From Candidatus Krumholzibacteriota bacterium (GTDB taxonomy: Bacteria > Krumholzibacteriota > Krumholzibacteriia > JACNKJ01), in contig JAFGBK010000011.1 of NCBI GenBank assembly GCA_016933175.1, positions 1,254-65,253 on the forward strand: 64,000 nucleotides of DNA. The letters run 5' to 3'. Below the pieces are notes generated by a model that saw nothing but the letters and a program-made list of their open reading frames with translations, did no database searches and was not told the origin of the DNA. A program made the translations under genes and the position numbers. Of the stretch, positions 5,066 to 51,072 are shown piece after piece. Each line of letters opens with the position of its first letter. Position 1 is the first letter of the stretch.

Positions 5066-5236
5066 GCCTCCCTGGGCTTGGATGGGGGAACCGGTGTTGG
5101 TGACGCGGCGCGGAACGCGGAATCCTACACCGCCGCCTCCGGTTTTCGCCCGGCCTCTCGCGCGGGCGCCCGCGGCCGGGAGCCCGGCCCTCGAGGATCC
5201 GGCGCCGCTCCGGTCGGGAGGCCCGCGACGTCCGGA

Positions 5237-36000: not shown

Positions 36001-37554
36001 ATGCAACGCGAGATCTTCGTGAATGTCGGGCCCACCGAGGTCGGCGTGGCCATCGTGGAGAACCACGAGCTCGTCGAGTACATGGTGGAGCGCGGCGAGA
36101 CCAAGCACATCGTCGGCGACGTCTACAAGGGCGTCGTCAAGGCCGTGCTGCCCGGTATCCAGGCCGCCTTCGTGGACATCGGCATGGAGAAGGCCGGCTT
36201 CCTGCACGTGACGGACCTGGCCTGGGGCGAGGAGGGCCTGCGCGACCGCCTCCAGGAGCTGGAGAGCGAGGACGGCGACGGCCGCCCGGTGCGGGGGCGC
36301 CGCGAGGTCTCCAAGCTGCCGCCCATCGAGAGCGTCATCAAGAAGGGCGACAAGGTGGTGGTGCAGGTCACCAAGGAGCCCATCGGGACCAAGGGGCCCC
36401 GCCTGACCACGCAGCTCTCCCTGCCGGGCAAGTTCTGCGTGCTCATGCCGGAGCTGGACTACATCGGCGTCAGCCGCAAGATCCTCGATCGCGGCGAACG
36501 CAGCCGCCTGCGGCGCGTGGCCCAGCGGGCGCGCCCCAAGGGCTGCGCCGTCATCGTCCGCACGGCCGGCGAGGGGGTCGAGGACGACCACATCGCCGAG
36601 GACATCCAGCGCCTGCACCAGCGGCACACGGCCATCATGGAGAGCAGCAGCGCCGTCAAGGCGCCGGCGCTGCTCAAGGAGGAGGTGGGCCTCGTCATCG
36701 GCATGGTGCGCGACCTCTTCAACGAGGAGGTCAAGCGCCTGCTCATCGACGACGAGCGGGAGCACGCCAACCTCGTCGAGTACGTGCACTCTTTCGCGCC
36801 GGAGCTGGAGAACCGCGTGCTCTACTACCGCGAGGAGCTGCCCATTTTCGACGCCTTCGGCGTGCAGGCGGAGCTGGAGAAGAGCCTGCAGCGGCAGGTC
36901 TGGCTCAAGAAGGGCGGCTACCTCGTCTTCGATCACACCGAGGCCCTGGTGGCCATCGACGTCAACACGGGCAAGTACACGGGCCGCAAGAACCAGGCGG
37001 ACACCATCCTCCAGACGAATCTGGCCGGCGCCCGGGAGATCCCCCGGCAGCTGCGCCTGCGTGACATCGGCGGCATCATCGTCATCGACTTCATCGACAT
37101 GGAGCGGGAGGAGGACCGCAAGAAGATCCTGGTGGAGCTGCGCCGGTACCTGCGCCAGGACCGGGCGCGCACCAAGGTCTTCGACGTCTCGCCGCTGGGC
37201 CTCGTGGAGATGAGCCGCAAGCGGGTGCGCCCGGCCCTGCTCCACTTCTTCAGCGAGGACTGCCCCTACTGCTCGGGGCGGGGGCACATCCTCTCGGTGG
37301 AGAGCCTGGTCAACAAGCTGGAGGCGACCCTGCGGCGCATCGCCACCCGCTGCCGGGAGCGCAAGTACCAGATCCGCCTCAATCCGGTGGTGGCCCACGC
37401 CGTGCGCCGGAAGCGCCTGGAGATCCTCCGGGACCTGGAGCGCGAGCACAAGGTGGAGCTGCACCTGCTGGACGATCCCCGGCTCCACCGCGAGCAGCAG
37501 GAGATCACGGCCCTGGAGACGGGCCGGGACCTCCTGGCCGCCGTCAGTCGCTGA
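36001..37554 (+). CDS. rng: Ribonuclease G (RNase E/G family)
   Basis: S1 domain N-terminus; catalytic RNase E/G core (GGIIVIDFIDM, zinc-link CPYCSGRG). Confidence 0.85.
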   Translation: MQREIFVNVGPTEVGVAIVENHELVEYMVERGETKHIVGDVYKGVVKAVLPGIQAAFVDIGMEKAGFLHVTDLAWGEEGLRDRLQELESEDGDGRPVRGRREVSKLPPIESVIKKGDKVVVQVTKEPIGTKGPRLTTQLSLPGKFCVLMPELDYIGVSRKILDRGERSRLRRVAQRARPKGCAVIVRTAGEGVEDDHIAEDIQRLHQRHTAIMESSSAVKAPALLKEEVGLVIGMVRDLFNEEVKRLLIDDEREHANLVEYVHSFAPELENRVLYYREELPIFDAFGVQAELEKSLQRQVWLKKGGYLVFDHTEALVAIDVNTGKYTGRKNQADTILQTNLAGAREIPRQLRLRDIGGIIVIDFIDMEREEDRKKILVELRRYLRQDRARTKVFDVSPLGLVEMSRKRVRPALLHFFSEDCPYCSGRGHILSVESLVNKLEATLRRIATRCRERKYQIRLNPVVAHAVRRKRLEILRDLEREHKVELHLLDDPRLHREQQEITALETGRDLLAAVSR

Positions 37555-37561
37555 GGGGGGC

Positions 37562-37590
37562 TTGACAGGGCCGGCCAACTGTAGTATTTA
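37562..37590 (+). promoter_or_regulatory. Candidate sigma70-type promoter (TTGACA-N17-TATTTA) for rplU-rpmA
   Basis: Consensus -35 and near-consensus -10 with 17-nt spacer, about 40 nt upstream of rplU GTG start. Confidence 0.45.
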
Positions 37591-37628
37591 AACGGCTTTG
37601 AACTCCGCATCCTGAGGAGGACGGAAAG

Positions 37629-37937
37629 GTGTACGCCCTGGTGAAAGTGGCCGGCATGCAATTCCGGGTGCGCCCGGACGAGGTGGTCCGTGTGCCCCAA
37701 CTCGCCGAGTCGGTTGGGAATACCATTGAGATCAAAGACGTTATGGCCATCGGCGAGGGCGACAGCATACGCATCGGCCAGCCCTTTCTGGAGGGGGCCA
37801 GCGTGACCGCCGAAGTCCTCGCCCACGGCCGGGCCCGCAAGATCCTGGTCTTCAAGAAGAAGCGCCGCAAGACGTACCAGCGCACGCGAGGCCATCGCCA
37901 GAACTACACCGAGATCCGGATCCGGTCCATCGCCTAG
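37629..37937 (+). CDS. rplU: 50S ribosomal protein L21
   Basis: GTG start after GAGGAGG; MYALVKVAGMQFRV... Confidence 0.9.
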   Translation: MYALVKVAGMQFRVRPDEVVRVPQLAESVGNTIEIKDVMAIGEGDSIRIGQPFLEGASVTAEVLAHGRARKILVFKKKRRKTYQRTRGHRQNYTEIRIRSIA

Positions 37938-37952
37938 GCAGAGGAGGCAGCC

Positions 37953-38207
37953 ATGGCCCACAAGAAAGGCGTCGGCAGCTCGCGCAACGGTCGCGACAGC
38001 AACCCCAAGTACCTGGGCGTCAAGCGGTTCGCCGGCCAGCCGGTACGAGCCGGCGCCATCCTCGTGCGCCAGCGCGGCACCCACATCCTGCCCGGCGCCA
38101 ACGTCGGCCGCGGCGGGGACGACACGCTATTCGCCCTGGTGGACGGCGTCGTCCAGTACGCGCGGCGCGGCAAGGACCGCCGCGAGGTGAGCATCCTGCC
38201 CGCCTGA
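37953..38207 (+). CDS. rpmA: 50S ribosomal protein L27
   Basis: [26 protein letters not shown]. Confidence 0.9.
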
Positions 38208-38225
38208 GCGCAGCGCGGCGTCCCG

Positions 38226-38256
38226 GCACGAAGCGGCGGGCCCGGCGGCCCGCCGT
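38226..38256 (+). terminator. Intrinsic terminator after rplU-rpmA: 9-bp GC stem (CGGCGGGCC/GGCCCGCCG), 4-nt loop, TTTT
   Basis: Perfect inverted repeat read directly, followed by T4. Confidence 0.6.
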
Positions 38257-38272
38257 TTTGCATGGAGGCCCC

Positions 38273-38986
38273 ATGGCGACCCTGGTGGTAATTCCCGCCC
38301 GCATGGCCTCGAGCCGCTTCCCCGGCAAGCCCCTGGCCGACCTGGCGGGCAAGACCCTCATCCAGCGCGTCTGCGAGCGCGCCGCCCGTCTTGCCGGCGT
38401 GGCGGGGCCGCGCGTCGCCACCGACGACGCCGCCATCCGCGACCATGTCCGCGCCCTGGGCTTCGAGGCCGTCATGACGTCGCCGGACCATCCCTCGGGC
38501 ACCGACCGCGTGGCGGAGGCCGCCGGCGACTGGCCCGGGCTGATCCTCAACCTCCAGGGGGACGAGCCCCTGTTCGAGCTGGCCGCCGTGGAGCGCCTCA
38601 TCGCGCGCCTGGCGTCCGATCCCGTCCTGTCCCTGGGCACGGCCGCCTCGCCCCTGGCGCCCGGCGACCTGGACGCGCCCGACCGCGTCAAGGTGCTGCG
38701 CGGTCGCGACGGCCTGGCCCGCGACTTCCGCCGGCGCCTGGCCGGTCCGCCGCCCGCGGACGCGGAGGTTCTGCGCCACGCCGGCGTCTACCTGTTCCGG
38801 GCCGAGGCCCTGCGCCGCTTCGTGGCCGCGCCGCCGGCGCCGCGTGAGCGCGCGGAACGCCTCGAGCAGCTGCGCGCCCTGCACCTGGGCCTGCCCATCT
38901 GGGTGGAGCGCGCCGATGACTGGGCGCCCGGCGTCGACCGGCCCGGCGACCTGAAAGTCGTTGCCAAGCGGCTGGGCGAGAGCTAG
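38273..38986 (+). CDS. kdsB: 3-deoxy-manno-octulosonate cytidylyltransferase (CMP-KDO synthetase)
   Basis: Second ATG (after terminator, GGAGG RBS): MATLVVIPARMASSRFPGKPL; GTDR motif. Confidence 0.85.
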   Translation: MATLVVIPARMASSRFPGKPLADLAGKTLIQRVCERAARLAGVAGPRVATDDAAIRDHVRALGFEAVMTSPDHPSGTDRVAEAAGDWPGLILNLQGDEPLFELAAVERLIARLASDPVLSLGTAASPLAPGDLDAPDRVKVLRGRDGLARDFRRRLAGPPPADAEVLRHAGVYLFRAEALRRFVAAPPAPRERAERLEQLRALHLGLPIWVERADDWAPGVDRPGDLKVVAKRLGES

Positions 38987-39042
38987 CATGAGGCCCCGGG
39001 CGCAAGCGCCCGGGTTTTTCATTTCCGGCCGAGAGGGGCAGC

Positions 39043-40680
39043 GTGGTGAGCAGCAGCGGGACCAAGTTCATCTTCGTCATGGGCGGCGTCGTATCCTCCC
39101 TGGGCAAGGGGATCGCCGCCTCCAGTCTCGGCCTCCTGCTCAAGCAGCGGGGGCTGCAGGTTTCCATGCTCAAGTTCGACCCCTACCTCAACGTGGATCC
39201 GGGCACCATGAGCCCCTTCCAGCACGGCGAGGTCTTCGTCACCGACGACGGGGCCGAGACCGACCTGGACCTCGGCCACTACGAGCGCTTCCTCGGCCGG
39301 AGCCTCGGTCGCGAGAACAACGTCACGGCGGGGCAGATCTACGACGCGATCCTCACCAAGGAGCGGCGCGGTGACTTCCTGGGCCGCACCGTGCAGGTGG
39401 TGCCCCACGTCACCAACGAGATCAAGGGCTGCGTCCTGCGCCTGGCCGACCGGGATCCCGACCTGGACGTGGTGATCACCGAGATCGGCGGCACCGTCGG
39501 CGACATCGAGAGCCTGCCCTTCCTGGAGGCCGTGCGGCAGGTCCTGTTCGATCTCGGCCGCGAGAACTGCCTGTACCTGCACCTGACCCTGGTGCCCTAC
39601 ATCGCCACCGCCCACGAGATCAAGACCAAGCCCACCCAGCACAGCGTCAAGACCCTGCGCGAGATCGGCATCCAGCCCGACATCCTCCTGTGCCGCACCA
39701 AGCTGCCCCTGAACCAGGACGTGAAGGAGAAGATCGGCCTGTTCTGCAACGTCTCCGCCCGCGACGTCATCGAGGCCCGCGACGCGGAGTCGATCTACGA
39801 GGTGCCCCTGCGCCTGGAAGCCGAGGGCCTGAGCCAGCGCGTGGCCGAGAAGCTCGGCCTCGGCGAGCGCGAGCCGGATCTCGAGGACTGGCGCCGCTTC
39901 GTCCGCGGCGTCCAGATGGCGACCCGCGAGGTCCGCATCGCCGTGGTGGGCAAGTACGTGGACCACCTCGACAGCTACAAGAGCATCATTGAGGCCTTCA
40001 CCCACGCCGGCGAGGCCAACGACGCGCGGGTGCGCGTCGAGTGGGTGGACAGCGAGAACCTGAACGAAGCGACCGCCGCCGAGAAGCTGACGGACATGGA
40101 CGGCATCCTCGTGCCCGGCGGCTTCGGCCACCGCGGCGTGGAGGGCAAGGTGGCCGCCATCCGCCTGGCCCGCGAGCGGGGGATTCCCTTCCTGGGCATC
40201 TGCCTGGGGCTGCAGGCGGCCATCATCGAGCTCGCGCGCGCCGTGGCCGGCCTGCCGGGCGCCGACAGCACGGAGTTCGAGCCCCAGAATCCGGCGCCGG
40301 TCATCTGCCTCATGGAGGAGCAGAAGGGCCTGCGGCAGATGGGCGGCACCATGCGCCTGGGCGCCTACCCCTGCCGCCTCGTGGCGGGCTCCCTGGCGCG
40401 CCGCTGCTATGACCGGGACGAGGTCTCCGAGCGACACCGCCACCGCTACGAGGTCAACAACGCCTATCGCGACAAGCTGGCGGCCGCGGGCATGCGCTTC
40501 TCGGGCCTGAGCCCCGACGGCCAGCTGGTGGAGATCATCGAGCTTCCCGACCACCCCTTCTTCATCGCCACCCAGTTCCACCCCGAGCTCAAGAGCCGGC
40601 CCCGCGCGCCCCACCCGCTCTTCCGCGCGCTGGTGGCGGCCGCCCTGACGAGGAGCCAGAGCAAGGTGGCCGTCTCGTGA
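39043..40680 (+). CDS. pyrG: CTP synthase
   Basis: [17 protein letters not shown] synthetase N-terminus; C-terminal GATase (GICLGLQ). Confidence 0.9.
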
Positions 40681-41507
40681 GGCGCTTCGCCGTCGGCGCC
40701 GCCGAGGTGGGGGCGGGCCGCCCCCTGCTGGTCGCGGGACCCTGCGTGGTGGAGGGTCGCGGCATGCTGGCCGACACGGCCGGCTTCCTCGCCGGGCTGG
40801 CGCGGGAGATCGGCTGGCCCCTGGTCTTCAAGGCGAGCTACCGCAAGGACAACCGCCTCTCGCCCGACAGCTTCAGCGGACTGGGCGACGAGAAGGCCCT
40901 GGCGCTTCTGGCCGACGCGGGCCGCGAGGCCGGCCTGCCCCTGCTCACCGACGTCCATCGCCCCGAGGAGGTGGCGGCGGCCGCGGCCGTGGTGGACTGC
41001 CTGCAGATCCCCGCCTTCCTCTGCCGGCAGACCTCCCTCCTGGCGGCGGCCGGCGCCGCCGGCCGCGCCGTGAACCTCAAGAAGGGGCAGTTCCTGGCCG
41101 CCGCGGACCTGGCCTTCTCGGCCGAGAAGCTGGCCCGCGCCGGCTGCGACCGCGTGCTGCTCACCGAGCGCGGCAGCAGCTGGGGCGAGCGCGACCTGGT
41201 GGTGGACTTCCGCTCCTTCCCCCGCCTGGCGGCCGCGGGGTGGCCGGTGCTCTTCGATCTGACGCACAGCCAGCAGCGGCCGGGGGCCGGCGGCGGCGCC
41301 TCCGGCGGCACGCGGGACTACGCGCGCGTCCTGGCCCGGGCGGCCCTGGCGGCCGGCGCCGACGGCCTCTTCCTGGAGGTCCATCCGGATCCGGCGCGCG
41401 CCAAGAGCGACAGCGCCACGCAGCTCGGCTTCGACGCGGCGGGCGCGCTGCTCCGCGAGCTGGCGCGCCTGCACGCGGCCATGGAGGCAGGCGATGCCCT
41501 TCCCTGA
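40677..41507 (+). CDS. kdsA: 3-deoxy-8-phosphooctulonate (KDO8P) synthase
   Basis: DAHP/KDO8P synthase family; [20 protein letters not shown]. Confidence 0.85.
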
Positions 41508-42024
41508 TCTGGCGGCGCGGCTGGCCCAGGTGCGCCTCCTCGTCTTCGACGTGGACGGCGTGCTCACCGACGGCACCATCACCATCTCGGGCGCGCGGCG
41601 CTGGTCCGTCACCGACGGCTTCGGCTTCCTGCTGGCCCGGCGCGGCGGACTCAAGACCGCCCTGTGCAGCGGCCGGAACGATCCCGAGATCGAGGCGCGC
41701 GCCGAGCGCCTGCGCATCGACGCCCTGCGCCTGGGGCGCATGGACAAGGGCGCCGGCGTGACGGAGCTGGCCGCGGAGCTGGGCGTGACGCCGGCCGAGA
41801 CCCTCTTCGTCGGCGACGACCTGTTCGACCTGCCGGGCCTGGCCGCCGCCGGCGTGGCCGCCGTGCCCGCCGACGCCCGGCCCGAGCTGCGCCGGCGCGC
41901 GGACTGGGTCCTGTCTGCGCCCGGCGGACGGGGCGCCGCCCGGGAGGTCATCGAGGCCGTGCTCCGCGCGCGGGGCGACTGGGAGCGGGTCCTGGCCGAG
42001 TTCACGGGAGGCGGCGATGACTGA
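41494..42024 (+). CDS. kdsC: KDO 8-phosphate phosphatase (HAD superfamily)
   Basis: LLVFDVDGVLTDG HAD motif I; KdsC-size (176 aa). Confidence 0.8.
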   Translation: MPFPDLAARLAQVRLLVFDVDGVLTDGTITISGARRWSVTDGFGFLLARRGGLKTALCSGRNDPEIEARAERLRIDALRLGRMDKGAGVTELAAELGVTPAETLFVGDDLFDLPGLAAAGVAAVPADARPELRRRADWVLSAPGGRGAAREVIEAVLRARGDWERVLAEFTGGGDD

Positions 42025-43015
42025 GGATTCCCGGCAGGAGGACCTGGCGCGCGGGCGCGAGGTCTTCGCGCGGGCGCAGGAGGCCCTGGCCGCCGTCGCG
42101 GCGCGCCTGGACGAGGACTTCGCCCGCGTGGTGGCGCTCCTGGCCGGCTGCGAGGGCCGCGTGGTGGTCACCGGCCTGGGCAAGTCGGGCCACGTGGCCG
42201 CCAAGCTCGCCAGCACCCTCAACTCGACGGGCACGCCGGCGGCCTTCCTCCACGCCGCCGAGGCCACCCACGGCGACCTGGGCTTCATCCGCGGCGAGGA
42301 TGTCTGCATCATCGTCTCCAAGAGCGGCGCCGGCGAGGAGCTGCGCGCCTGGATCCCCTTCCTGCACGGGCGCGGCTGCCCGGTGGTGGCCATCACCGGC
42401 GCCGGCGACTCCTACCTGGCGCGGGAGGCGGACTACGTGATGGACGCCGCCGTGCCCACCGAGGCCTGCCCCTACAACCTGGCGCCCACGGCCAGCAGCA
42501 CCGCCGCCATGGTGCTGGGGGACGCCCTGGCCATCGCCCTCCTGGAGCGGCGCGGATTCGGCCCCGAGGAGTTCCTGCGCTCCCACCCGGGCGGCGTCCT
42601 GGGGCGGCGGCTCACCCTCCGGGTGGAGGACCTCATGCACCGCGGCGACGAGCTGCCCTGGGTGACGCCCGGCGCCAGCCTGCGCGACACCCTGATGGTC
42701 ATCATCCGCCGCGGCCTGGGCATGGCCTGCGTCATGCCGGAACCCGGCGGGCCTCTCCTGGGCGTGCTCACCGACGGCGACCTCAAGCGCCTGCTCGTGG
42801 ACGGCGAGGGCGACGGGCTCATGGACCGGCCCGCGGGGGATCTCGCCTCCCCGGATCCACGCACGGTGCGTGCCGGCACCCTGGCCACCGACGCCCTGAC
42901 CATGATGGAGGCGAACCAGCCCGGGCCCATCACCAGCCTGGTGGTGGTGGACGCGGCGGGCGCCGTGCTCGGTGTGGTGCACATTCATGACATCCTGCGC
43001 GCCGGGCTCAGCTAA
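42017..43015 (+). CDS. kdsD: Arabinose-5-phosphate isomerase (SIS + tandem CBS)
   Basis: SIS VVVTGLGKSGHVAAKLASTL; C-terminal CBS pair. Confidence 0.85.
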   Translation: MTEDSRQEDLARGREVFARAQEALAAVAARLDEDFARVVALLAGCEGRVVVTGLGKSGHVAAKLASTLNSTGTPAAFLHAAEATHGDLGFIRGEDVCIIVSKSGAGEELRAWIPFLHGRGCPVVAITGAGDSYLAREADYVMDAAVPTEACPYNLAPTASSTAAMVLGDALAIALLERRGFGPEEFLRSHPGGVLGRRLTLRVEDLMHRGDELPWVTPGASLRDTLMVIIRRGLGMACVMPEPGGPLLGVLTDGDLKRLLVDGEGDGLMDRPAGDLASPDPRTVRAGTLATDALTMMEANQPGPITSLVVVDAAGAVLGVVHIHDILRAGLS

Positions 43016-43117
43016 TCGAATTCATGACAACGGATTGAGACCTTCCACTTCACGCCGGGCCCATGCCCCGCCGCGCCTCGGCGCTCACGTAACTTTCTCA
43101 TCATATCTCATCGTTCC

Positions 43118-43161
43118 TGGCATAAGCATTGCTTGACAACACCTTCCCACCTCCCTATCAT
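43118..43161 (+). promoter_or_regulatory. Overlapping candidate sigma54 (-24/-12: TGGCAT-N5-TTGCT) and sigma70 (TTGACA-N17-TATCAT) promoters upstream of lptC-lptB-rpoN
   Basis: TGGCAT 43118-43123, TTGCT 43129-43133; TTGACA 43133-43138, 17-nt spacer, TATCAT 43156-43161; in an AT-richer 200-bp gap. Confidence 0.45.
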
Positions 43162-43220
43162 CCCAGCGAACGAGCGAAGCTCTCACTGTAACTCAATGAA
43201 GTTCAAAGGAATACGCTGAT

Positions 43221-43808
43221 TTGCACCCGGACCGCCGCCACTCGCCGCCACGCTGGGCCAGGATGGGACCGGTCCTCCTCGTCCTGCTCGCTGGGGCCTG
43301 CTCCAAGGAGGCCGTACCGCCGGTGCTCGAGGAGCCCGGGGAGGCACCGGACCAGATCATCTGGGATTTCACGACGACGGAATCGGACTCGGGGCGCCTG
43401 ATCTGGGTTCTGAAGGCGCAGCAGGCCCGCGTCTTCAACACGCGCAAGGAGGTGGAGGCGACGGCCCTTCGTGTCGATATGTATGGGGAGCAGCGCACCA
43501 TCACCTCCACCCTCACGGCAGACTCGGGCGTCATCGACCAGAGGACCGGCGCCATGACCGTCAGCGGGCGCGTGCACGTGCGCAGCCACGAGGGCTACGA
43601 GCTGTTCACCAGCGTGCTGCACTGGGACAAGCGGCGCGAGATCTTCCGCACGGAGGCCTTCGTCGAGGTGCACCACGGCGACAACCTCTACACGGGCTAC
43701 GAGATGGAATGCGATCGCAACCTCGACCACCTGAGCATCCAGCGGGAACCGCGCGGCGTCATCGTCGGCTCGCCGGTCCTGGACGACGAGGAGGCCGACC
43801 GTGACTGA
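43221..43808 (+). CDS. lptC: LPS export protein LptC-like (lipoprotein form)
   Basis: LptC/OstA-like beta-jellyroll; lipobox LLAGACS (alternative start at 43263 MGPVLL); position between kdsD and lptB. Confidence 0.65.
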
Positions 43809-44541
43809 CGGGCGCCGGGACGCCGTGCTGCGGGGCAAGGGCCTCGTGAAGAGCTACGGCCGCCGCCGCGTGGTGGACGACGTGACCCTCACCCTGCGCC
43901 AAGGGGAAGTGGTGGGCCTGCTGGGACCCAACGGCGCCGGCAAGACCACCACCTTCTACATGATCGTCGGGATGATCCGGCCGGACGCCGGCTCCGTCCA
44001 CGTGGACGACACGCCGATCCACCACATGCCCATGTACCGGCGCGCCCGGCTGGGCATCGGCTACCTGAGCCAGGAGGCCTCGGTCTTCCGCAAGCTGAGC
44101 GTGGAGGACAACCTGATGGCCATCCTGGAGACCCTGCCGATCCCGCCGGAGGAGCGCCTGCGGCGGCGAGAGAACCTGCTGGCCGAGCTGGGCATCGAGC
44201 ACGTCCGCAAGAACCAGGGCCACCAGCTCAGCGGCGGCGAGCGCCGGCGCGTGGAGATCGCGCGCGCGCTGACCAGCAAGCCGCGCTTCATCCTGCTGGA
44301 CGAGCCCTTCGCCGGCATCGACCCCATCGCGGTCGGCGACGTGCAGGCCATCATCGGCCAGCTGAAGGAGATGGGGCTGGGCATCCTGATCACGGACCAC
44401 AACGTGCGGGAGACGCTCAGCATCACGGACCGCAGCTACATCCTCTTCGAGGGACGCATCATTCGCGCCGGCACGGCGGAGGAACTGGTCCGCGACGAGA
44501 GGGCGAGACAGGTCTACCTGGGCGAAAGCTTCAACTTGTGA
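43801..44541 (+). CDS. lptB: LPS export ABC transporter ATP-binding protein
   Basis: Walker [25 protein letters not shown], Walker B ILLDEP. Confidence 0.9.
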
Positions 44542-44557
44542 GCGCGAGAGTCTTGCC

Positions 44558-45940
44558 ATGGAAATGAAGATGAACCTGCAGCTGCGCCAGCGTCAGCAGC
44601 TCGTGATGACGCCGCGGCTGCAGCAGGCCCTGAAGCTGCTGCAGCTGCCAACGCTGGAGCTGGAGCAGGTCCTCAAGAACGAGGTCCAGGCCAACCCCCT
44701 CCTGGAGATCGAGGAAGACGACGACGACGAGCAGGACCGCGCGCAGCGGGAGCACGCGGACGAGCCCCAGGCGGGCAACCTCGACAACTGGGAAGACATC
44801 TTCAACGACGGCTTCGACATGCAGTACCAGGAGAAGGAGGATCTGTCCGAGGACTTCGTGGAGCGCGTGCCCGTGCACCGCCAGTCGGCCGGGGACAAGC
44901 TCCAGCGCCAGCTCCGCATGGTCACCAGCGACGCCGAGCTGCTGCGCATCGGCGAGTACATCATCGGCAGCCTCGACGACCGCGGCTTTCTCACGGTGGG
45001 GCTCGACGAGATCCGGAACGTCTTCCACATCGGCGAGAGCCGCGCCCGCGAGGCGCTGATCCTGGTGCAGAGCCTGGAGCCGCCGGGGATCGCCGCCCGC
45101 GACCTGCCCGAGTGCCTGCTGCTGCAGCTGGCGGCGCGGGGCATGGCCGACAGCCTCGTGGCGCGCATCATCCGCGACCACTTCAAGGAGCTGATGCAGC
45201 GCAAGTACCAGGAGATCGCCCGCAAGCTGAAGCTGGGGGTGGAGGAGGTGCAGGAGGCGGCGCGCTACATCGGCGAGCTGGATCCCAAGCCAGGCCTCGA
45301 GCTCAGCAGCGAGGAGCCCCACTACATCATCCCCGACCTGGTGGTCGAGGAGGTGGACGGCGAGTACGTCATCTACCTCAACGACCGCCACCTGCCGCGG
45401 CTGCGCATCGCCGACAGCTACAAGGACTACCTGCGCAAGGCCAGCAAGGACACCAAGGACTACGTCCAGGGCAAGCTGAACCAGGCGCAGTGGCTGATCC
45501 GCACGGTGGAGCAGCGCCGGGCGACCATGGTGAAGGTCATGGCCGCCATCATCGAGGAGCAGAGCGACTTCTTCGAGAGGGGCCCGCAGGCGCTCCGCCC
45601 CCTGACCCTGCAGCAGGTGGCCAGCAAGATCGGCATGCACGAGAGCACGGTCAGCCGCGTCACCAACAACAAGACCGTGCAGACGCCCCGCGGCATCTTC
45701 CAGCTCAAGTACTTCTTCTCCAGCTCCCTCAGCACCGAGGACGGGGAGGAGGTCAGCGCCAAGGCGGCCAAGAGCCGCATCCAGGAGATCGTTTCCAAGG
45801 AGGAGAAGAAGCGGCCCCTCAGCGACCAGAAGATCGCCGACATCCTGCGCCAGGAGGGACTGATGATCGCCCGCCGCACCGTGGCCAAGTACCGCGAGCA
45901 GCTGGGCATCCTGCCGGCGCGCCTGCGCAAGGAGTTTTAG
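44558..45940 (+). CDS. rpoN: RNA polymerase sigma-54 factor (true start may be the MNLQLRQ Met at 44570)
   Basis: N-terminal LQLRQRQQLVMTPRLQQALKLLQLP; C-terminal RpoN box ARRTVAKYRE. Confidence 0.9.
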   Translation: MEMKMNLQLRQRQQLVMTPRLQQALKLLQLPTLELEQVLKNEVQANPLLEIEEDDDDEQDRAQREHADEPQAGNLDNWEDIFNDGFDMQYQEKEDLSEDFVERVPVHRQSAGDKLQRQLRMVTSDAELLRIGEYIIGSLDDRGFLTVGLDEIRNVFHIGESRAREALILVQSLEPPGIAARDLPECLLLQLAARGMADSLVARIIRDHFKELMQRKYQEIARKLKLGVEEVQEAARYIGELDPKPGLELSSEEPHYIIPDLVVEEVDGEYVIYLNDRHLPRLRIADSYKDYLRKASKDTKDYVQGKLNQAQWLIRTVEQRRATMVKVMAAIIEEQSDFFERGPQALRPLTLQQVASKIGMHESTVSRVTNNKTVQTPRGIFQLKYFFSSSLSTEDGEEVSAKAAKSRIQEIVSKEEKKRPLSDQKIADILRQEGLMIARRTVAKYREQLGILPARLRKEF

Positions 45941-46083
45941 GGCGTGCTGGGCCTTGCCGCCCCGGGAGCCCGCAGCTATGCTTGGTGCGGAGCCTGGCCG
46001 CCCGACCGACGCGCCCGGAGGCTGGATGAGCCGTCGCCCCGCCATCGCGTTCCCCGGAAAACCAGACGACCGATCGCGCCCGT

Positions 46084-46108
46084 CCCCCGCCCGGGGGCGG
46101 GCCCTTTT
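46084..46108 (+). terminator. GC-rich hairpin (CCCGCCC/GGGCGGG) + TTTT between rpoN and hpf; candidate terminator/attenuator
   Basis: Direct reading; 25 nt upstream of hpf RBS. Confidence 0.4.
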
Positions 46109-46133
46109 GCGTGAAGTGAAAGGAGACTCGAGG

Positions 46134-46700
46134 ATGCAGATCACGGTCACCGGCAAGAAGCTAGACCTGACACCGGCCATTCGCAGCTACGCCGAGGAGA
46201 AGATCGGCAGGCTGGACAAGTTCGTGGACGGAGTCCGCGAGGCCCACGTCCTGCTGCGGGTGGAGAAGCATCGTCACATTGCCGAGGCCACGTTGAGGGG
46301 GAAGAGCGCCGACTTCTCGGGCAAGGAGCACAGCGAGGATCTCTATGCCGCCATCGACCGCCTCGCCGACAAGCTCGAGAGCCAGATGCGCAAGTTCAAG
46401 ACGCGCACCCTCAACCGCCGCAAGGGCGGCAAGCCGGGCGCCCGCACCAGCACCGCGGACTTCAGCACCGGCACCATCACCATCCTGGGCGAGGTCGAGG
46501 TCGGCGAGGAGGAGGCGCCGCGCCCGGTTATCGAGGAGAAGTTCATCACGCTCGACCAGCTGACGGTCGAGGAGGCCATCAGCCGCATGGAGGTGCACGA
46601 CAGCCACTTCTGGGTCTACAGCGACGCGGCGGAGGGCCGGATGTGCGTCGTCTACCGCCGCAGCGACGGCCACTACGGCCTCATCCAGGCCGAGGCCTAG
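46134..46700 (+). CDS. hpf: Ribosome hibernation promoting factor (long form)
   Basis: AAAGGAG RBS; MQITVTGKKLDLTPAIRSYAEEKIGRLDKF; C-terminal dimerisation domain. Confidence 0.85.
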   Translation: MQITVTGKKLDLTPAIRSYAEEKIGRLDKFVDGVREAHVLLRVEKHRHIAEATLRGKSADFSGKEHSEDLYAAIDRLADKLESQMRKFKTRTLNRRKGGKPGARTSTADFSTGTITILGEVEVGEEEAPRPVIEEKFITLDQLTVEEAISRMEVHDSHFWVYSDAAEGRMCVVYRRSDGHYGLIQAEA

Positions 46701-46709
46701 GGGGCGGCC

Positions 46710-47693
46710 GTGGAGATCGTCGAGCGGAACCTGCCCGTGGCGCGCTTCGTGGCCGAGACGGCCGAGCTGCTCGGCCTGCGGCTCGTCGGCGTCAGCCCCG
46801 AGTCGGGCACGGACATCACGGTGCCGGAGGTCTCGCGCCCGGGCTTCGTGCTGACGGGCTTCACGGACAAGTACCAGCACGAGCGGATCCAGATCCTCGG
46901 CGGGGCGGAGTTCTCCTTCCTGGAGACTCTGCCCCGCGACGAGGTGGCCGGGGCCATCGCCCACCTCTTTTCCCGGCCCGTGCCCTGCTTCATCGTCACC
47001 CGCGGCCAGGAGCCCTTTCCGGAACTGGTGCAGCAGGCCCACGAGCACGGCGTGCCCCTGCTGGTCACCGAGCAGCACACGACGCGCTTCATCCGGGCCC
47101 TGACGGGCTACCTCGAGGACTTCTTCTCGCCGCGGGGCAACGTCCACGGCTCGCTGGTGGACGTCTACGGCGTCGGACTCCTCGTCACCGGGCCCAGCGG
47201 CATCGGCAAGAGCGAGATCACCCTGGATCTGGTCGAGCGAGGCCACCGCCTCGTGGCCGACGACGTCGTCCAGCTCATCCGGCGCGGCGGCGTGCTCATC
47301 GGCCGCGGCAACGAGTTCCTCAAGCACTTCATGGAGATCCGCGGCGTCGGCGTCATCGACGTGCGCGAGATGTTCGGCATCCGCGCCATCCGCGTGCAGA
47401 AGCGCGTGGAGGTGGAGGTGCGCCTCGAGCGCTGGGTCCAGGGCAAGCACTACGACCGGGCCGGCCTCGAGTACCAGACCAGCCCCATCCTCGGCGTGGA
47501 GATCCCCAACGTGGTGCTGCCGGTGACCCCGGGCAAGAACGTCACCGTCATCGCCGAGACCATCGCCATGAACCACATGCTCAAGGTCTACGGGCTCAGT
47601 CCCGCCGAGCGCTTCAACCGCCAAGTCATGGAGGGCCTGGCCCGCCGCAACGAGGCCCGCGTCTATCACTACCTGCAGCAGGACGAGGAGTGA
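46710..47693 (+). CDS. hprK: HPr kinase/phosphorylase
   Basis: P-loop GPSGIGKSE, HprK C-terminal domain. Confidence 0.85.
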   Translation: MEIVERNLPVARFVAETAELLGLRLVGVSPESGTDITVPEVSRPGFVLTGFTDKYQHERIQILGGAEFSFLETLPRDEVAGAIAHLFSRPVPCFIVTRGQEPFPELVQQAHEHGVPLLVTEQHTTRFIRALTGYLEDFFSPRGNVHGSLVDVYGVGLLVTGPSGIGKSEITLDLVERGHRLVADDVVQLIRRGGVLIGRGNEFLKHFMEIRGVGVIDVREMFGIRAIRVQKRVEVEVRLERWVQGKHYDRAGLEYQTSPILGVEIPNVVLPVTPGKNVTVIAETIAMNHMLKVYGLSPAERFNRQVMEGLARRNEARVYHYLQQDEE

Positions 47694-47766
47694 GCCTGGG
47701 CTTGACTTCTCGCCGGGCAGACCGGACAATCCCCGCGTTCACGACTCCAGGCACACGGAGAGGACC

Positions 47767-48156
47767 ATGATCCCGGCCGTCATCGTCTGTCACGGCGCCC
47801 TCGGCGAAGCCTACCTGGAGGCGCTGGCGGGCATCTACGGCGAGGTCACGGACGTCGCGACCGTCACCAACGAGGACCTCGGGGCCGAGGAGCTGGAGTC
47901 GGCGGTGGCCGCGTCCCTCGAGCGCCTGGCGGGCGGCGGCATCGTCTTCACCGATTACTTCGGCGGCAGCTGCGCCAACGCCTGCCTGACTCTCCTGCCC
48001 GCGCGGCCGGCGGTGCGCCTGATCAGCGGCGTCAATCTTCCCGTGCTGCTCTACTACCTGGCCCACCGGCACGAGCTGGGCATGGACGAGCTGGTCCGGG
48101 GCATCGTCAACCGGGGTCACAACTCCATCCGGGAGCTGAGCCCGCCCGTCCTCTGA
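47767..48156 (+). CDS. PTS EIIA component, mannose/fructose/sorbose family
   Basis: VIVCHGALGEA (phospho-His region), GVNLPVLL; EIIA-Man fold size. Confidence 0.7.
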   Translation: MIPAVIVCHGALGEAYLEALAGIYGEVTDVATVTNEDLGAEELESAVAASLERLAGGGIVFTDYFGGSCANACLTLLPARPAVRLISGVNLPVLLYYLAHRHELGMDELVRGIVNRGHNSIRELSPPVL

Positions 48157-48169
48157 GGGCAGGGAGGCC

Positions 48170-48607
48170 GTGGATCTCCACCTGGATGATCGCCTGCTGC
48201 ACGGCCGCATCCTCCATGGCTGGGGACGGAGGCTTGGCGCCCGGCGCTATGTGCTGGTCATCCCGGCGGCCGGCGATCCCGCCCGCCGCGCCGTCTACGC
48301 GGCCGTGGCGCGCGAGGCCGGCGCCGAGCTGGTCCTCGCCGCGGCCGACGCGGCGCCGGCGCCCCGGGCCGGCGACTTCTGGCTGGCCGATGGGCCCGCC
48401 GCGGCCCTGGCGCTGTGGCGGGCCGGGCGGCGCTACCGGCGGCTGATCCTCATCGGGCTGCGCCGGTCCGCGGGGCGCCGCCTCGGACCCGATATCACGG
48501 CCGACGAGGCCGACCTGGACGCCCTGCGCGCCCTGCAGGCCGCGGGCGTGGGCTGTGAACGGCGGCGCTTTCCGGACGAGGCCGGGGAGCCGCTGCCGCC
48601 CCTCTGA
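48170..48607 (+). CDS. PTS EIIB component, mannose/sorbose family (divergent)
   Basis: GTG start; N-terminal LDDRLLHGRILHGW matches EIIB-Man RIDDRLIHGQV phospho-His motif. Confidence 0.55.
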   Translation: MDLHLDDRLLHGRILHGWGRRLGARRYVLVIPAAGDPARRAVYAAVAREAGAELVLAAADAAPAPRAGDFWLADGPAAALALWRAGRRYRRLILIGLRRSAGRRLGPDITADEADLDALRALQAAGVGCERRRFPDEAGEPLPPL

Positions 48608-48639
48608 ACCGGTCCGCCGGGCCGCGCGCGGGAGAACGC

Positions 48640-50787
48640 ATGCCGACCCTCATCCTCGGTGTCCACAACCATCAGCCCGTGGGTAACTTCGACCACGTGG
48701 TGCGCGAGGCCTACGACCGGGCCTACCGGCCCTTCCTGGAGCTCCTCGACGCCCACCCCGCCATGCGCCTCTGCGTCCACGTCTCCGGCCCCCTGATCGA
48801 GTGGATGAAGCGCGAGGCGCCCGACTACCTGGAGCGCCTGCGGGCCGGCGCGACGGCCGGGCGACTGGAGCTCCTGGGCGGCGGCTACTGGGAGCCCATC
48901 CTCACCGTCCTGACCGAGCGGGATCAGCACGCCCAGCTCGAGCGCATGAGCCGCGAGGTGGAGGCACTCTGCGGCCGCCGCCCCCGCGGCATCTGGCTGG
49001 CCGAGCGCATCTGGGAGCCCCACCTGCCGCGGGTCCTGCAGGCCCACGGCATCGAGTACGCGGCCCTGGACGACACGCACTTCCTGGCCACCGGCTTCAC
49101 GCCCGACCGCCTCGGCGGCTACTTCCTCACCGAGGAGGGGGGCCGCGCCCTGGCCCTGTTCCCCATCTCCAAGCGGCTGCGCTACCTGGTGCCCTTCCGC
49201 GCTCCGGCCGAGGTCCTGGCCTATCTGCGCGGAAGCGCGGCGCCGGGCGACGGCGACCTGGCCGGCGCCGACGCGGCCGACGCCGAGGGCGTGCCGGGTC
49301 TGCCGCTGGCCGTCCTCATGGACGACGGCGAGAAGTTCGGCGTCTGGCCCGGCACCAACGATCTCTGCTACACACAGGGGCGGCTCGCGAAGCTCTTCGG
49401 CGCCCTGGCCGCCGAGCCCGGCCTGCGCCTGGCCACCTTCTCCGAGGTGCTGGACGAGCAGCCGCCCCTCGGCCCGGCCTACCTGCCCACGGGCAGCTAC
49501 TTCGAGATGGGGGAGTGGGCCCTGCCCCTGGCCGGCCAGCAGAAGCTCGCCGCCCTCACCGCCCTGGTGAAGCAGCATGACGGCGGCCTGCAGCCCTTCG
49601 TCCGCGGCGGGTTCTGGCGGAACTTCTTCGCCAAGTACGAGGAGAGCCACTGGCTGCACAAGCGCATGCTCTGGGCGGGGCGCGCCGTGTCGGCCGCCCG
49701 CGAGGCCGGGACCGCCGACGCCGGCGCGCTGGCGGAGGCGGAGGACCGGATCCTGGAGGCCCAGTGCAACTGCGGCTACTGGCACGGCTTGTTCGGCGGC
49801 CTCTATCTGCCCCACCTGCGCCACGCGATCCTCGAGCGCCTGGTGCGCGCCGAGCACCTGGTGGCGGGTCCGGGCTACACTCTGGCGCAGGAGGACCTGG
49901 ACATCGACGGCGACGCGGAGATCGTCTGGACGAGCCCCGCGGCCCGCCTCTTCCTCAAACCACGCGGCGGCCGCGTGCGCGAGCTGGACCTGCGCGAGCC
50001 GGCCTTCCCGCTGACCAACGTCCTCGCGCGGCGCGAGGAGTTCTACCACCGGCGCCTGGCCGAGGCCCTGGCGCCCGGCGAGGCGGCCGACGCCGCCAAG
50101 AGCATCCACGACATCGTGCGGGCCAAGGAGACGGGGCTCGAGGAGTTCCTGGTCTACGATCCCCACCCGCGGGCCAGCCTGGAGGAGCGGCTCTACGAGA
50201 CCGGTGCCGACGCGGCGCCCTACGCCGGGAGCTGGCAGGACCTGGCCGACCTGCACTGCGCCGTCGAGCTCCCCGCGGCGCCCGACGGCGAGCTGGTCCT
50301 GCGCGGCGAGCGCGCCTTCGAGACCGGCCGCCGGCTGGAGCTGGTCAAGCGCCTGCGCTGGGCGGACGACGGCTGGACCCTGGCGGTGGATCTCGCGCTG
50401 TGCTATCACGGGCCGGGCCGCCTGGCCAGCCTCCTGGCCTCCGGCTGGAACCTGAACCTCCTGGCACCGGAGGCGCCGGATCGCCGCGTCCTCGTCGACG
50501 GCCGGCCCGCCGCCGATGCCCGGCTGCGCAGCCGCGGCTGGGAGCGCGACATCGGGCGCCTGGAGCTGCGCGATGACTGGAGCGGCCTGGCCGTCGCCCT
50601 GGCCGGCGAGGAGCTGGACGTCTGGCGGGAGCCCATCGAGACCGTCAGCCTCTCGGAGGCCGGCTTCGAGCGGGTCTACCAGGGCTCCTGGCTGGCCGTG
50701 GCCCGCCGCATCGAACTGGAATCGGGGCAGACCGCCCGTCTGCGCTACCGCCTCGAGCTCGCCCGCCTGGCGGGCGCGACGGCGTAG
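48640..50787 (+). CDS. Glycoside hydrolase family 57 protein (alpha-amylase / 4-alpha-glucanotransferase / branching-enzyme type)
   Basis: GH57 N-terminus ILGVHNHQPVGNF, WLAERIWEP, GH57 catalytic-region conservation; 715 aa. Confidence 0.75.
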   Translation: MPTLILGVHNHQPVGNFDHVVREAYDRAYRPFLELLDAHPAMRLCVHVSGPLIEWMKREAPDYLERLRAGATAGRLELLGGGYWEPILTVLTERDQHAQLERMSREVEALCGRRPRGIWLAERIWEPHLPRVLQAHGIEYAALDDTHFLATGFTPDRLGGYFLTEEGGRALALFPISKRLRYLVPFRAPAEVLAYLRGSAAPGDGDLAGADAADAEGVPGLPLAVLMDDGEKFGVWPGTNDLCYTQGRLAKLFGALAAEPGLRLATFSEVLDEQPPLGPAYLPTGSYFEMGEWALPLAGQQKLAALTALVKQHDGGLQPFVRGGFWRNFFAKYEESHWLHKRMLWAGRAVSAAREAGTADAGALAEAEDRILEAQCNCGYWHGLFGGLYLPHLRHAILERLVRAEHLVAGPGYTLAQEDLDIDGDAEIVWTSPAARLFLKPRGGRVRELDLREPAFPLTNVLARREEFYHRRLAEALAPGEAADAAKSIHDIVRAKETGLEEFLVYDPHPRASLEERLYETGADAAPYAGSWQDLADLHCAVELPAAPDGELVLRGERAFETGRRLELVKRLRWADDGWTLAVDLALCYHGPGRLASLLASGWNLNLLAPEAPDRRVLVDGRPAADARLRSRGWERDIGRLELRDDWSGLAVALAGEELDVWREPIETVSLSEAGFERVYQGSWLAVARRIELESGQTARLRYRLELARLAGATA

Positions 50788-50799
50788 GGAGGAGAGCCC

Positions 50800-51072
50800 G
50801 TGCGAGAGCGCAAGCTGGAAGTGGTCAACGCCAAGGGGCTGCACCTGCGGGCGGCCAGCGAGCTGGTCAAGCTCACCGCCACGCTGACGTGCCGCGTGTC
50901 CCTCTCCAATGGGATCATCGAGGTGGACGGCAAGAGCATCCTCGGCGTGGCGGCCCTGGGCGCCGCCAAGGGCACCGAGATCGTCGTCCGCACCGAGGGC
51001 GACGGCGAGCAGGACGCCCTGGACCGGATCACCGCCCTGTTCACGCGGGGGTTCTACGAGAATGTCCCCTGA
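50800..51072 (+). CDS. ptsH: Phosphocarrier protein HPr
   Basis: GLHLRAASELV (His-15 region), GKS (Ser-46 region). Confidence 0.85.
   Translation: MRERKLEVVNAKGLHLRAASELVKLTATLTCRVSLSNGIIEVDGKSILGVAALGAAKGTEIVVRTEGDGEQDALDRITALFTRGFYENVP

Follow-up and report, generated by a model that had tools for sequence, protein, structure and literature searches.

What controls the synthesis of sigma-54 in the Krumholzibacteriota, a lineage without a cultured member, and are the neighbouring genes for lipopolysaccharide (LPS) export drawn into the same control? Both questions are raised by a gene cluster in the window, the 64 kb stretch of DNA analysed here. Pfam and NCBIfam gene calls give the layout kdsB-pyrG-kdsA-kdsC-kdsD, a 205-bp gap, lptC-lptB-rpoN and then hpf-hprK, in agreement with the gene order proposed in an earlier, sequence-only reading. 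The genes are as follows.

38258-38986, forward strand: kdsB, CMP-Kdo synthetase family (Pfam CTP_transf_3, E 9e-38)
39043-40680, forward strand: pyrG, CTP synthase (Pfam CTP_synth_N and GATase)
40677-41507, forward strand: kdsA, Kdo-8-P synthase family, 276 aa (Pfam DAHP_synth_1, E 1.5e-55)
41494-42024, forward strand: kdsC-like HAD phosphatase (top matches are NCBIfam KdsC models, slightly under their cut-offs, 99 against 107 bits)
42017-43015, forward strand: kdsD, arabinose-5-P isomerase of the KpsF/GutQ family with SIS and CBS domains (TIGR00393, 287 bits, cut-off 204)
43221-43808, forward strand: lptC, 195 aa, TTG start, predicted lipoprotein signal (TIGR04409, 84 bits, cut-off 38)
43801-44541, forward strand: lptB, GTG start (TIGR04406, 368 bits, cut-off 240)
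44558-45940, forward strand: rpoN, sigma-54, 460 aa (Pfam AID, CBD and DBD; TIGR02395, 456 bits, cut-off 277)
46135-46700, forward strand: hpf, long form with C-terminal dimerisation domain (Pfam Ribosomal_S30AE and C-terminal domain; TIGR00741)
46710-47693, forward strand: hprK, HPr kinase/phosphorylase (Pfam Hpr_kinase_N and Hpr_kinase_C)
57491-60030, reverse strand: lptG and lptF, the remaining inner-membrane Lpt transporter (Pfam LptF_LptG, 278 and 285 bits; top matches NCBIfam LptG/LptF)

Inspection of start codons and ribosome-binding sites places the true start of hpf at ATG 46135. The lptG and lptF genes lie approximately 13 kb downstream of the lptC-lptB-rpoN cluster. The 8-nt overlap of lptC and lptB previously noted is the sequence GTGACTGA, with GGAGG 6 nt 5' of the lptB GTG. 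Since lptB overlaps lptC and rpoN begins 16 nt past the lptB stop, all three genes depend on one promoter.

The synteny had been called Proteobacteria-like. As a description this holds, but not as an affiliation, RpoN homologues at 83 to 56% identity being named Candidatus Krumholzibacteriia/-ota. That lptB sits directly 5' of rpoN, and that hpf and a PTS-type regulator follow, is an arrangement native to Krumholzibacteriota. The lptB-rpoN(-hpf/-hprK) linkage is common in other diderm phyla, occurring in loci of Myxococcota, Bdellovibrionota, Spirochaetota, Lindowbacteria and Atribacteria, and among the loci compared it was not seen in Bacteroidota. A gene for the T9SS protein SprA in the window likewise speaks against a proteobacterium.

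An AT-richer gap of about 200 bp before lptC, with a sigma-54 element overlapping a near-perfect sigma-70 promoter, had been proposed, and both elements were located.

43016-43220, forward strand: intergenic promoter region of lptC-lptB-rpoN, 205 bp, GC 0.59 (0.72 for the window)
43118-43133, forward strand: candidate sigma-54 -24/-12 element TGGCAT-N5-TTGCT, TGGCATAAGCATTGCT
43133-43161, forward strand: sigma-70-type promoter TTGACA-N17-TATCAT, score 11/12

In the sigma-54-type element GG occupies 43119-43120 and GC 43131-43132, a distance of exactly 10 bp, and 10 of the 12 specified positions of the consensus TGGCAC-N5-TTGCW are matched; the predicted start is near 43144. No other site on the two strands of the window fits TGGCAY-N5-TTGCW, for which 0.06 matches would be expected, and six of 100 shuffled sequences contained one match. 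The sigma-70-type promoter, the top-scoring site of its kind within 37500-48700, comprises a -35 hexamer TTGACA (43133-43138), a 17-nt spacer and a -10 hexamer TATCAT (43156-43161), with a predicted start near 43168 and a 5' untranslated region of about 53 nt. The T at 43133 belongs to both elements. The same genome encodes, in rpoN, the activator-interacting, core-binding and DNA-binding domains of sigma-54.

The arrangement was compared across 13 distinct Krumholzibacteriota genomes, with RpoN identities of 95 to 56% and locus GC of 0.51 to 0.72. Orthologous gaps, 150-330 bp long, are present in every one. All 13 also carry TGGCA[TC]-N5-TTGC running directly into TTGAC[AT], with a -10-like element 17±1 nt further on, and the composite element always heads (lpxL-like)-lptC-lptB-rpoN. 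In alignment A3, invariance is confined to 16 columns: those of TGGCA, those of TTGCTTGAC and the two of the -10 that read TA. Conservation is 100% in the 14 core columns, and none of the 137 other well-occupied columns is invariant. The six columns separating TGGCA from TTGC average 0.68 conservation; GG and GC blocks that stay constant around a changing spacer are what sigma-54 recognition would be expected to leave. One relative (L167) carries the full consensus, TGGCACG-N4-TTGCT. The -10 hexamer varies (TATCAT, TATCCT, TATTCT, TATTAT and others), with only TA invariant. While the flanks diverge to about 50%, the register of the sigma-54-type element against the -35 never drifts. Invariance in 13 related genomes represents one ancestral element that has been maintained, not 13 independent events.

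TTGCTTGAC occurs 14 times in 235 kb of Krumholzibacteriota loci, and as 13 of these occurrences sit at the lptC-lptB-rpoN site, a generic extended -35 can be dismissed. The 64 kb window and approximately 170 kb from relatives yielded no further sigma-54 site, which counts against the sigma-54 reading in that it leaves no local consensus for comparison. The hpf promoter, likewise sigma-70-like and conserved in the clade, is without a sigma-54-like element.

45954-45982, forward strand: sigma-70-like promoter of hpf, TTGCCG-N17-TATGCT, conserved in the closer subclade
46078-46112, forward strand: GC-rich hairpin followed by a T-run, 138 nt past the rpoN stop

The hpf promoter is kept as CTTGCCG-N17-TAWGNT in eight genomes of the closer subclade. 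The hairpin lies downstream of it, its end 23 nt short of the hpf ATG, and loci L162, L169 and L164 contain similar ones.

What might such an arrangement do? We consider it probable, with modest confidence, that the kdsD-lptC spacer controls lptC-lptB-rpoN as one operon of three genes, and that sigma-54 feeds back on its own operon by promoter occlusion. The near-consensus sigma-70-type promoter would drive the operon. The sigma-54 holoenzyme, bound to TGGCAT-N5-TTGCT, would cover the -35 hexamer, making occupation by the two polymerases mutually exclusive. Since closed complexes of the sigma-54 holoenzyme are stable even when no activator is present, more sigma-54 would mean less sigma-70-driven transcription of the operon. 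The outcome would be negative feedback, with LptC and LptB levels also tied to sigma-54. Should an enhancer-binding protein act at the sigma-54 site, the second start near 43144 would come into use. The motifs, their overlap and their invariance across the phylum are observed; that sigma-54 binds, that the two polymerases exclude each other and which way the effect runs are what we infer. The earlier suggestion that rpoN transcription is potentially sigma-54-responsive, whether by autoregulation or promoter competition, gains support from the invariance of the -24, -12 and -35 elements in all 13 genomes.

In the main rival explanation, which we regard as possible though on balance doubtful, the sigma-54 site is a genuine promoter that needs an activator and works alongside a constitutive sigma-70 promoter, in the manner of glmY. 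Under some signal, envelope or nutrient stress for example, the operon would be turned on from near 43144 by an enhancer-binding protein, giving conditional or positive autoregulation instead of repression. The motif and conservation data fit this equally, the activator-interacting domain of sigma-54 is intact, and there are precedents in sigma-54 promoters that drive rpoN (PMC12316311) and in the overlapping dual promoters of glmY/glmZ (PMC4152352). However, a second promoter alone gives no reason for the invariant abutment to the -35. In addition, no gene for a GAFTGA protein, the mark of a bacterial enhancer-binding protein, is present in the window or in nine related loci, so that under either reading the sign of a working sigma-54 system is the intact rpoN gene. 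A search of the 260 nt upstream in the 13 genomes for a possible activator site gave neither a conserved inverted repeat nor a shared k-mer, a weak negative as activator sites can diverge or lie inside kdsD. It is because no conserved activator site was found that negative feedback by occlusion is favoured.

It is unlikely that the TGGCA...TTGC block is read by another transcription factor, or forms an upstream extension of the sigma-70 promoter, with its -24/-12 likeness coincidental. Recognition by sigma-54 is predicted from sequence, and the block, at about -36 to -51 from the sigma-70 start, occupies the zone of class I/II activators and UP-like elements. Nevertheless the conserved bases and the 10-bp GG-to-GC spacing agree with the sigma-54 consensus at each position, and the columns that vary are its N positions. 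The block is not palindromic, TTGCTTGAC is not at other promoters in the 235 kb, and the element stands ahead of the gene for sigma-54 itself. That two consensus-like motifs coincide by chance and are functionless is highly improbable and effectively refuted by the comparative data: motif matches in single genomes are often due to chance, as the shuffled sequences illustrate, but persistence in 13 of 13 genomes with such diverged flanks indicates that the composite element is not a chance product.

The cluster carries a second peculiarity. It had been claimed that lptA is absent, and indeed no open reading frame lies between lptC and lptB. A fusion of lptA within lptC is excluded, as the 195-aa protein gives one LptC match, TIGR04409 covering residues 19-179; Pfam LptC (PF06835) also matches, with 49 bits against a cut-off of 21. 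LptC is thus a single jellyroll-sized protein whose gene adjoins lptB. Local jackhmmer searches identified an LptC-like and LptA-like pair in Myxococcota, Spirochaetota, Lindowbacteria and a gammaproteobacterium, whereas LptC only, with no LptA-like protein, was found in the 64 kb of the source genome and in all Krumholzibacteriota loci searched, ±5-8 kb around each relative's locus. Precomputed Pfam annotation likewise contains no LptA in loci L169-L171. The gene is missing from the cluster phylum-wide, which is unusual among the lptB-rpoN clusters of other phyla. The N-terminus of LptC is a predicted lipoprotein signal (LLAGAC/SKE), not a transmembrane helix of the E. coli type, and the signal cysteine is near-invariant, conserved in at least 90% of the aligned orthologues (alignment A4, 11 orthologues). 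The lack of a helix does not exclude membership of the LptC family, since naturally occurring LptC variants of lipoprotein or periplasmic type have been predicted (PMC9544173).

Similar superpositions may extend further. In a group of Myxococcota MAGs, TTGT-N17-YGGTAYG-N4-TTGCATATG is kept without change and superimposes the sigma-70 -10 on the sigma-54 -24; in Krumholzibacteriota it is the sigma-54 -12 that lies against the sigma-70 -35. We suggest, as speculation, that a sigma-54 site on the sigma-70 promoter of lptC-(lptA)-lptB-rpoN is a recurrent, independently evolved means of balancing sigma-54 and LPS export, and that the Krumholzibacteriota Lpt bridge operates without LptA, on a lipoprotein LptC. 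As a phylogenetic footprint that spans the phylum, the composite element is a candidate mark of sigma-54 acting back on its own operon, and it would link LPS export, through LptC and LptB, to sigma-54 dosage. At 45 bp it is small enough for a heterologous host, where the question is whether a closed sigma-54 complex can sense dosage and thereby repress a consensus sigma-70 promoter. The loss of lptA from a widely conserved lptC-lptA-lptB-rpoN block, together with a predicted lipid-anchored LptC, makes Krumholzibacteriota a candidate for a shortened or rearranged LPS bridge.

Comparisons with known systems inform on these proposals. The E. coli locus has the order yrbG-kdsD-kdsC-lptC-lptA-lptB-rpoN-hpf-ptsN-rapZ-npr. 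Both loci place Kdo synthesis genes, lptC, lptB, rpoN and hpf in the same order, followed by PTS-related regulators. The Krumholzibacteriota cluster differs in being without lptA, in the addition of kdsB, pyrG and kdsA, in the replacement of ptsN by hprK and an EIIA(Man)-type protein, and in the 205-bp promoter gap between kdsD and lptC. The E. coli LptC is a bitopic membrane protein, that of Krumholzibacteriota a predicted lipoprotein. E. coli LptF suppressor strains without LptC assemble a six-protein Lpt bridge (PMC9972910, PMC4986956), and so a bridge short of one β-jellyroll protein can work, although E. coli loses LptC and keeps LptA whereas the Krumholzibacteriota cluster keeps LptC and is without LptA.

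The glmY/glmZ small RNA genes of Enterobacteriaceae have a sigma-54 promoter that overlaps with one for sigma-70 (Reichenbach 2009, Gopel 2011, as reviewed in PMC4152352), at which the two holoenzymes compete (PMC3844500). In common with Krumholzibacteriota, two promoter types are superimposed, with holoenzyme competition (predicted in our case), and the arrangement is conserved among relatives. At glmY, however, transcription from both promoters begins at a single site, and it is known where the activator GlrR and IHF bind. In Krumholzibacteriota the -12 abuts the -35, about 24 nt separate the predicted starts, the search for an activator site gave none, and sigma-54 itself is among the operon's products.

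Autoregulation of rpoN is a feature of R. etli rpoN1, B. japonicum rpoN2 and P. putida. Negative autoregulation of rpoN is described for Rhizobium leguminosarum (cited in PMC3538637). Sigma-54 promoters that precede rpoN show enrichment in several classes and are also reported for G. sulfurreducens and Dokdonia (PMC12316311). In these systems, as here, a sigma-54 recognition element precedes the transcription unit encoding sigma-54. The Krumholzibacteriota element, known from sequence alone, differs in heading lptC-lptB-rpoN, 1.4 kb upstream of rpoN, and in its position against the sigma-70 -35, fixed across a whole uncultured phylum. The arrangement, unchanged throughout the phylum, suggests that sigma-54 controls its own production by feedback, through a circuit of a kind already known but in a new lineage.

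Pfam and NCBIfam searches of the window confirm every gene call in the cluster, from kdsB to hprK, as the sequence-only reading had assigned them.

38258-38986: kdsB
39043-40680: pyrG
40677-41507: kdsA
41494-42024: KdsC-like HAD phosphatase
42017-43015: kdsD
43221-43808: lptC (TIGR04409, 84 bits, cut-off 38)
43801-44541: lptB, GTG start
44558-45940: rpoN, with all three sigma-54 domains
46135: hpf, the ATG being the true start and not the TTG of the mechanical ORF
46710-47693: hprK
57491-60030 (-): lptF and lptG, opposite strand, 13 kb further downstream

The stop of lptC and the start of lptB share the 8-nt overlap that the same reading had reported (GTGACTGA), with a GGAGG placed 6 nt 5' of the lptB GTG, and the spacing from lptB to rpoN is 16 nt. 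With rpoN so close behind lptB and the lptC and lptB reading frames overlapping, the gap ahead of lptC should hold the promoter region from which the three are transcribed as one unit.

The window is not proteobacterial DNA. RpoN homologues in the protein database at 83, 62 and 56-58% identity are named Candidatus Krumholzibacteriia, Krumholzibacteria or Krumholzibacteriota, a T9SS SprA/Sov gene begins at 60061, and the GC content of about 71% fits published Krumholzibacteriota MAGs (PMC10936416). A species-level genome collection holds two close relatives, with RpoN identities of 86% and 82%, and its next matches are Myxococcota at 44%. A JGI metagenome scan gave one further relative at 95% and, with the addition of relatives from the protein database, 13 distinct genomes were reached. 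RpoN identities of the fetched loci are 95, 86, 83, 82, 72, 71, 62, 58, 58, 57, 56 and 56%, and the GC content of the 13-genome loci ranges from 0.51 to 0.72.

The synteny pyrG-kdsA-(kdsC)-kdsD, gap, (lpxL-like acyltransferase)-lptC-lptB-rpoN is retained in every Krumholzibacteriota genome compared. The order had been described as Proteobacteria-like; the order itself stands and the label is descriptive, the arrangement being native to Krumholzibacteriota. Linkage of lptB and rpoN (with hpf or hprK) is also present in Myxococcota, Bdellovibrionota, Spirochaetota, Lindowbacteria and Atribacteria loci and absent from the Bacteroidota loci compared. According to one survey, which covered 85 genomes, lpt genes cluster in Proteobacteria alone (PMC8871954). 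In more distant Krumholzibacteriota the operon opens with an inserted gene for an lpxL-like lipid A acyltransferase, with the composite promoter described below still ahead of it, and a lipoyl-synthase-like radical SAM gene sits between rpoN and hpf. The lpxL-like and lipoyl-synthase-like genes, by locus, are:

L166: 3642-4586 and 7445-8371
L167: 7427-8353
L168: 3647-4597 and 7737-8447
L170: 2661-3608
L171: 6439-7341

The gap between kdsD and lptC is 205 bp long, with a GC content of 0.59 compared to 0.72 for the window. At 43118-43133 it carries the sigma-54 -24/-12 motif TGGCATAAGCATTGCT, the sole match to TGGCAY-N5-TTGCW on both strands of the window, where 0.06 would be expected. A sigma-70-type promoter, TTGACA-17-TATCAT (score 11/12), occupies 43133-43161. 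The T at 43133 is common to the two. Both promoter motifs and the overlap first proposed by eye are indeed there.

All 13 Krumholzibacteriota genomes have TGGCA[TC]-N5-TTGC in this gap, followed directly by TTGAC[AT], and a -10-like hexamer 17±1 nt past the -35 (TATCAT, TATCCT, TATTCT, TATTAT, TATCTC, TATAAG and others). The relative L167 displays the full sigma-54 consensus, TGGCACG-N4-TTGCT. Insertion of the acyltransferase gene ahead of lptC (L166, L168 and L170) does not displace the element, which still heads the operon. In the alignment of the 13 promoter regions invariance is confined to TGGCA, TTGCTTGAC and the -10 TA. Conservation is 100% in the fourteen core columns and averages 0.68 in the six that separate TGGCA from TTGC, and of the 137 other well-occupied columns none is invariant (mean majority fraction 0.51). 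GG and GC blocks 10 bp apart, with a free spacer, are the pattern that sigma-54 recognition predicts. Invariance of the motif in 13 of 13 genomes supports the earlier suggestion that rpoN is potentially sigma-54-responsive.

Under the usual convention a sigma-54 start would fall near 43144, counted from the -12 GC (43131-43132), and the -10 hexamer would place the sigma-70 start near 43168. Judging from the established footprints of closed sigma-54 complexes, a sigma-54 holoenzyme at the -24/-12 would cover the TTGACA hexamer and the two holoenzymes would be mutually exclusive. Sigma-54 holoenzyme binds stably and remains closed in the absence of an activator, so the simplest outcome would be negative feedback: as sigma-54 rises, a very strong sigma-70 promoter would be occluded more and lptC-lptB-rpoN mRNA would fall. 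From the sequence comparisons we lean, with modest confidence, towards such occlusion by sigma-54 of the sigma-70 promoter of its own operon. The main alternative is a glmY-like dual promoter with an activator of its own (cf. PMC4152352), which we consider unlikely though worth keeping in mind. Two observations favour negative feedback over it. The register of a mere second promoter would be free to drift, yet the overlap register is invariant; and no conserved activator site is visible, there being no phylum-wide inverted repeat or k-mer in the 260 nt upstream of the element, where the only shared k-mers apparently derive from the kdsD coding sequence. A further reason to prefer negative feedback is that experiments have already shown rpoN to be negatively autoregulated elsewhere (PMC3538637). 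Neither the window nor nine related loci encode a GAFTGA-type enhancer-binding protein, and an Rfam scan of the whole window matched no family. There is no second sigma-54-like site of equal quality in the window or in the flanks of the relatives, which match only at orthologous sites; relaxing the sigma-54 motif yields, in the window, matches within GC-rich coding sequence.

Might the conserved block be a transcription factor site, or a promoter extension, unrelated to sigma-54? This we regard as improbable. Across 235 kb of Krumholzibacteriota sequence there are 53 copies of TTGACA but 14 of TTGCTTGAC, and 13 of these 14 sit at the rpoN-operon site, so TTGC is no general 5' extension of the phylum's -35 hexamers. 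In addition, a conserved promoter-like site ahead of hpf has no TGGCA or TTGC partner. A chance coincidence of motifs is barely credible.

The cluster was also claimed to lack lptA, and the 8-nt lptC/lptB overlap leaves no room for it. A local iterative profile search (jackhmmer) covered all ORFs of the window and of 168 loci, with the window LptC and the E. coli LptA as seeds. The LptA seed matched the ORF between lptC and lptB of a gammaproteobacterial locus with E 3e-34, in support of its use. An LptC-like and then an LptA-like ORF precede lptB in Myxococcota, Spirochaetota, Lindowbacteria and gammaproteobacterial loci. Each Krumholzibacteriota locus searched has one LptC-like ORF of about 200 aa alone, as does the unclassified MAG L077; three further loci (L169-L171) also have a single LptC-like ORF, by precomputed Pfam annotation. 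The profile search found no LptA-like ORF anywhere in the 64-kb window. Given a single ORF in this lineage where other phyla have the pair, the absence of lptA from the cluster is a real lineage trait, unusual among lptB-rpoN clusters. Fusion of lptA into lptC is excluded, the protein being 195 aa with one LptC match that spans residues 19-179. In Bdellovibrionota/Oligoflexia the region upstream of lptB holds one ORF, about 400 aa long, that matches both LptC and LptA profiles and may be an LptC-LptA fusion (L008:709-1935, L011:5961-7187, L013:5770-7224, L016:6030-7178, L026:6023-7207, L030:90-1292).

Searches of PDB sequences with LptC and with an 11-sequence profile gave no matches. The Krumholzibacteriota LptC orthologues share a near-invariant, lipobox-like cysteine behind a hydrophobic stretch, e.g. 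LLAGAC|SKE (window 43221-43310), on which basis LptC is probably a lipid-anchored lipoprotein rather than bitopic with a transmembrane helix. Lipid-anchored LptC variants are predicted in nature (PMC9544173) and E. coli is able to run the Lpt bridge with one jellyroll protein fewer (PMC9972910). The missing lptA and the predicted lipoprotein LptC together make a worthwhile side finding.

Right past the rpoN stop, at 45954-45982, is a sigma-70-like site, CTTGCCG-N17-TAWGNT, kept in eight genomes. It would open an hpf leader of about 150 nt (within 45954-46134) that ends in a GC-rich hairpin and T-run (46078-46112, hairpin 46078-46102), followed by the hpf ribosome-binding site. With this conserved site and the hairpin between rpoN and hpf, hpf-hprK is probably a separate transcription unit. 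An interpretation of the hairpin as a terminator directly after rpoN was revised, since it sits 3' of the hpf promoter-like site; the hairpin may halt read-through from rpoN and at the same time form part of the hpf leader. The leader may be of the attenuator type.

Past hprK, 47767-52846 encodes a Man-type EIIA, a sorbose EIIB-like protein, a GH57 alpha-amylase/4-alpha-glucanotransferase, HPr and Enzyme I. No EIIC/EIID permease was seen in the window and these genes may constitute a regulatory PTS; EII-Sor and EIID-AGA genes are present at the PTS region of more distant Krumholzibacteriota (L166, L167, L168 and L170). The SprA/Sov-like gene at 60061-64000 (+), divergent from lptF-lptG, encodes a protein of >1313 aa, cut by the window end, that matches the T9SS outer-membrane translocon (TIGR04189, E 2e-119; no Pfam family). 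Two ORFs of 436 and 486 aa with high GC3, at 897-2207 (-) and 3776-5236 (-), match no Pfam family at E<0.001.

Sigma-54-like elements also occur near rpoN in other phyla. Eleven Myxococcota-type MAG loci (L003:5502-5640, L005, L007, L009, L017, L018, L023, L034:5556-5694, L083, L086, L095) carry an invariant TTGT-N17-[CT]GGTA[TC]G-N4-TTGCATATG just 5' of lptC-lptA-lptB-rpoN. This can be read as a sigma-70-like promoter (-35 TTGTNN, -10 TATGNT) or as a sigma-54-like element with 9-11 of 12 consensus positions; here the sigma-70 -10 lies on the sigma-54 -24, whereas in Krumholzibacteriota the -12 abuts the -35. The ATG that follows TTGCAT may start lptC with almost no leader, which makes part of this conservation ambiguous. 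Matches of at least 9/12 occur in 16 of 38 non-Krumholzibacteriota lptC upstream regions compared to 38 of 760 control windows, the loci not being phylogenetically independent. If the Myxococcota lead is borne out, the lpt-rpoN operon would have come under overlapping sigma54/sigma70 control more than once. In rumen Spirochaetota, codons 6-11 (M-A-C-L/F-L-L) of an lptC-like lipoprotein ORF heading lptC-lptA-lptB-rpoN contain TGGCATG-N4-TTGCT, just 3' of a promoter-like TTGCAA-N16-TATATT; the motif could be a sigma-54 site or mere coding conservation (L074:2074, L075:770, L080:6113, L141:2107, L142:1842, L145:2101, L147:2038, L148:2113, L150:2105). Cytophagales/Cyclobacteriaceae loci have a common TGGAACGAAATTTGCT (11/12 consensus positions) 2-2.9 kb upstream of rpoN, with a secreted protein of 126 aa encoded about 45 nt further on; this is probably a genuine sigma-54 promoter (L028:5877, L035:5107, L036:5908, L039:5910, L047:5111, L126:834, L144:147).

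Sigma-54 promoters ahead of rpoN, implying autoregulation, are reported to be enriched in several bacterial classes and are reported too for Geobacter and Dokdonia (PMC12316311), and at glmY and glmZ it is established that holoenzymes compete for overlapping sigma54/sigma70 promoters (PMC4152352, PMC3844500). The type of mechanism suggested here is one already known, with a footprint that is unusually clean and in an unexplored lineage. In contrast to those cases the Krumholzibacteriota element heads lptC-lptB-rpoN, its sigma-54 -12 abuts the sigma-70 -35 such that the predicted starts are staggered, and it is invariant across the entire candidate phylum.
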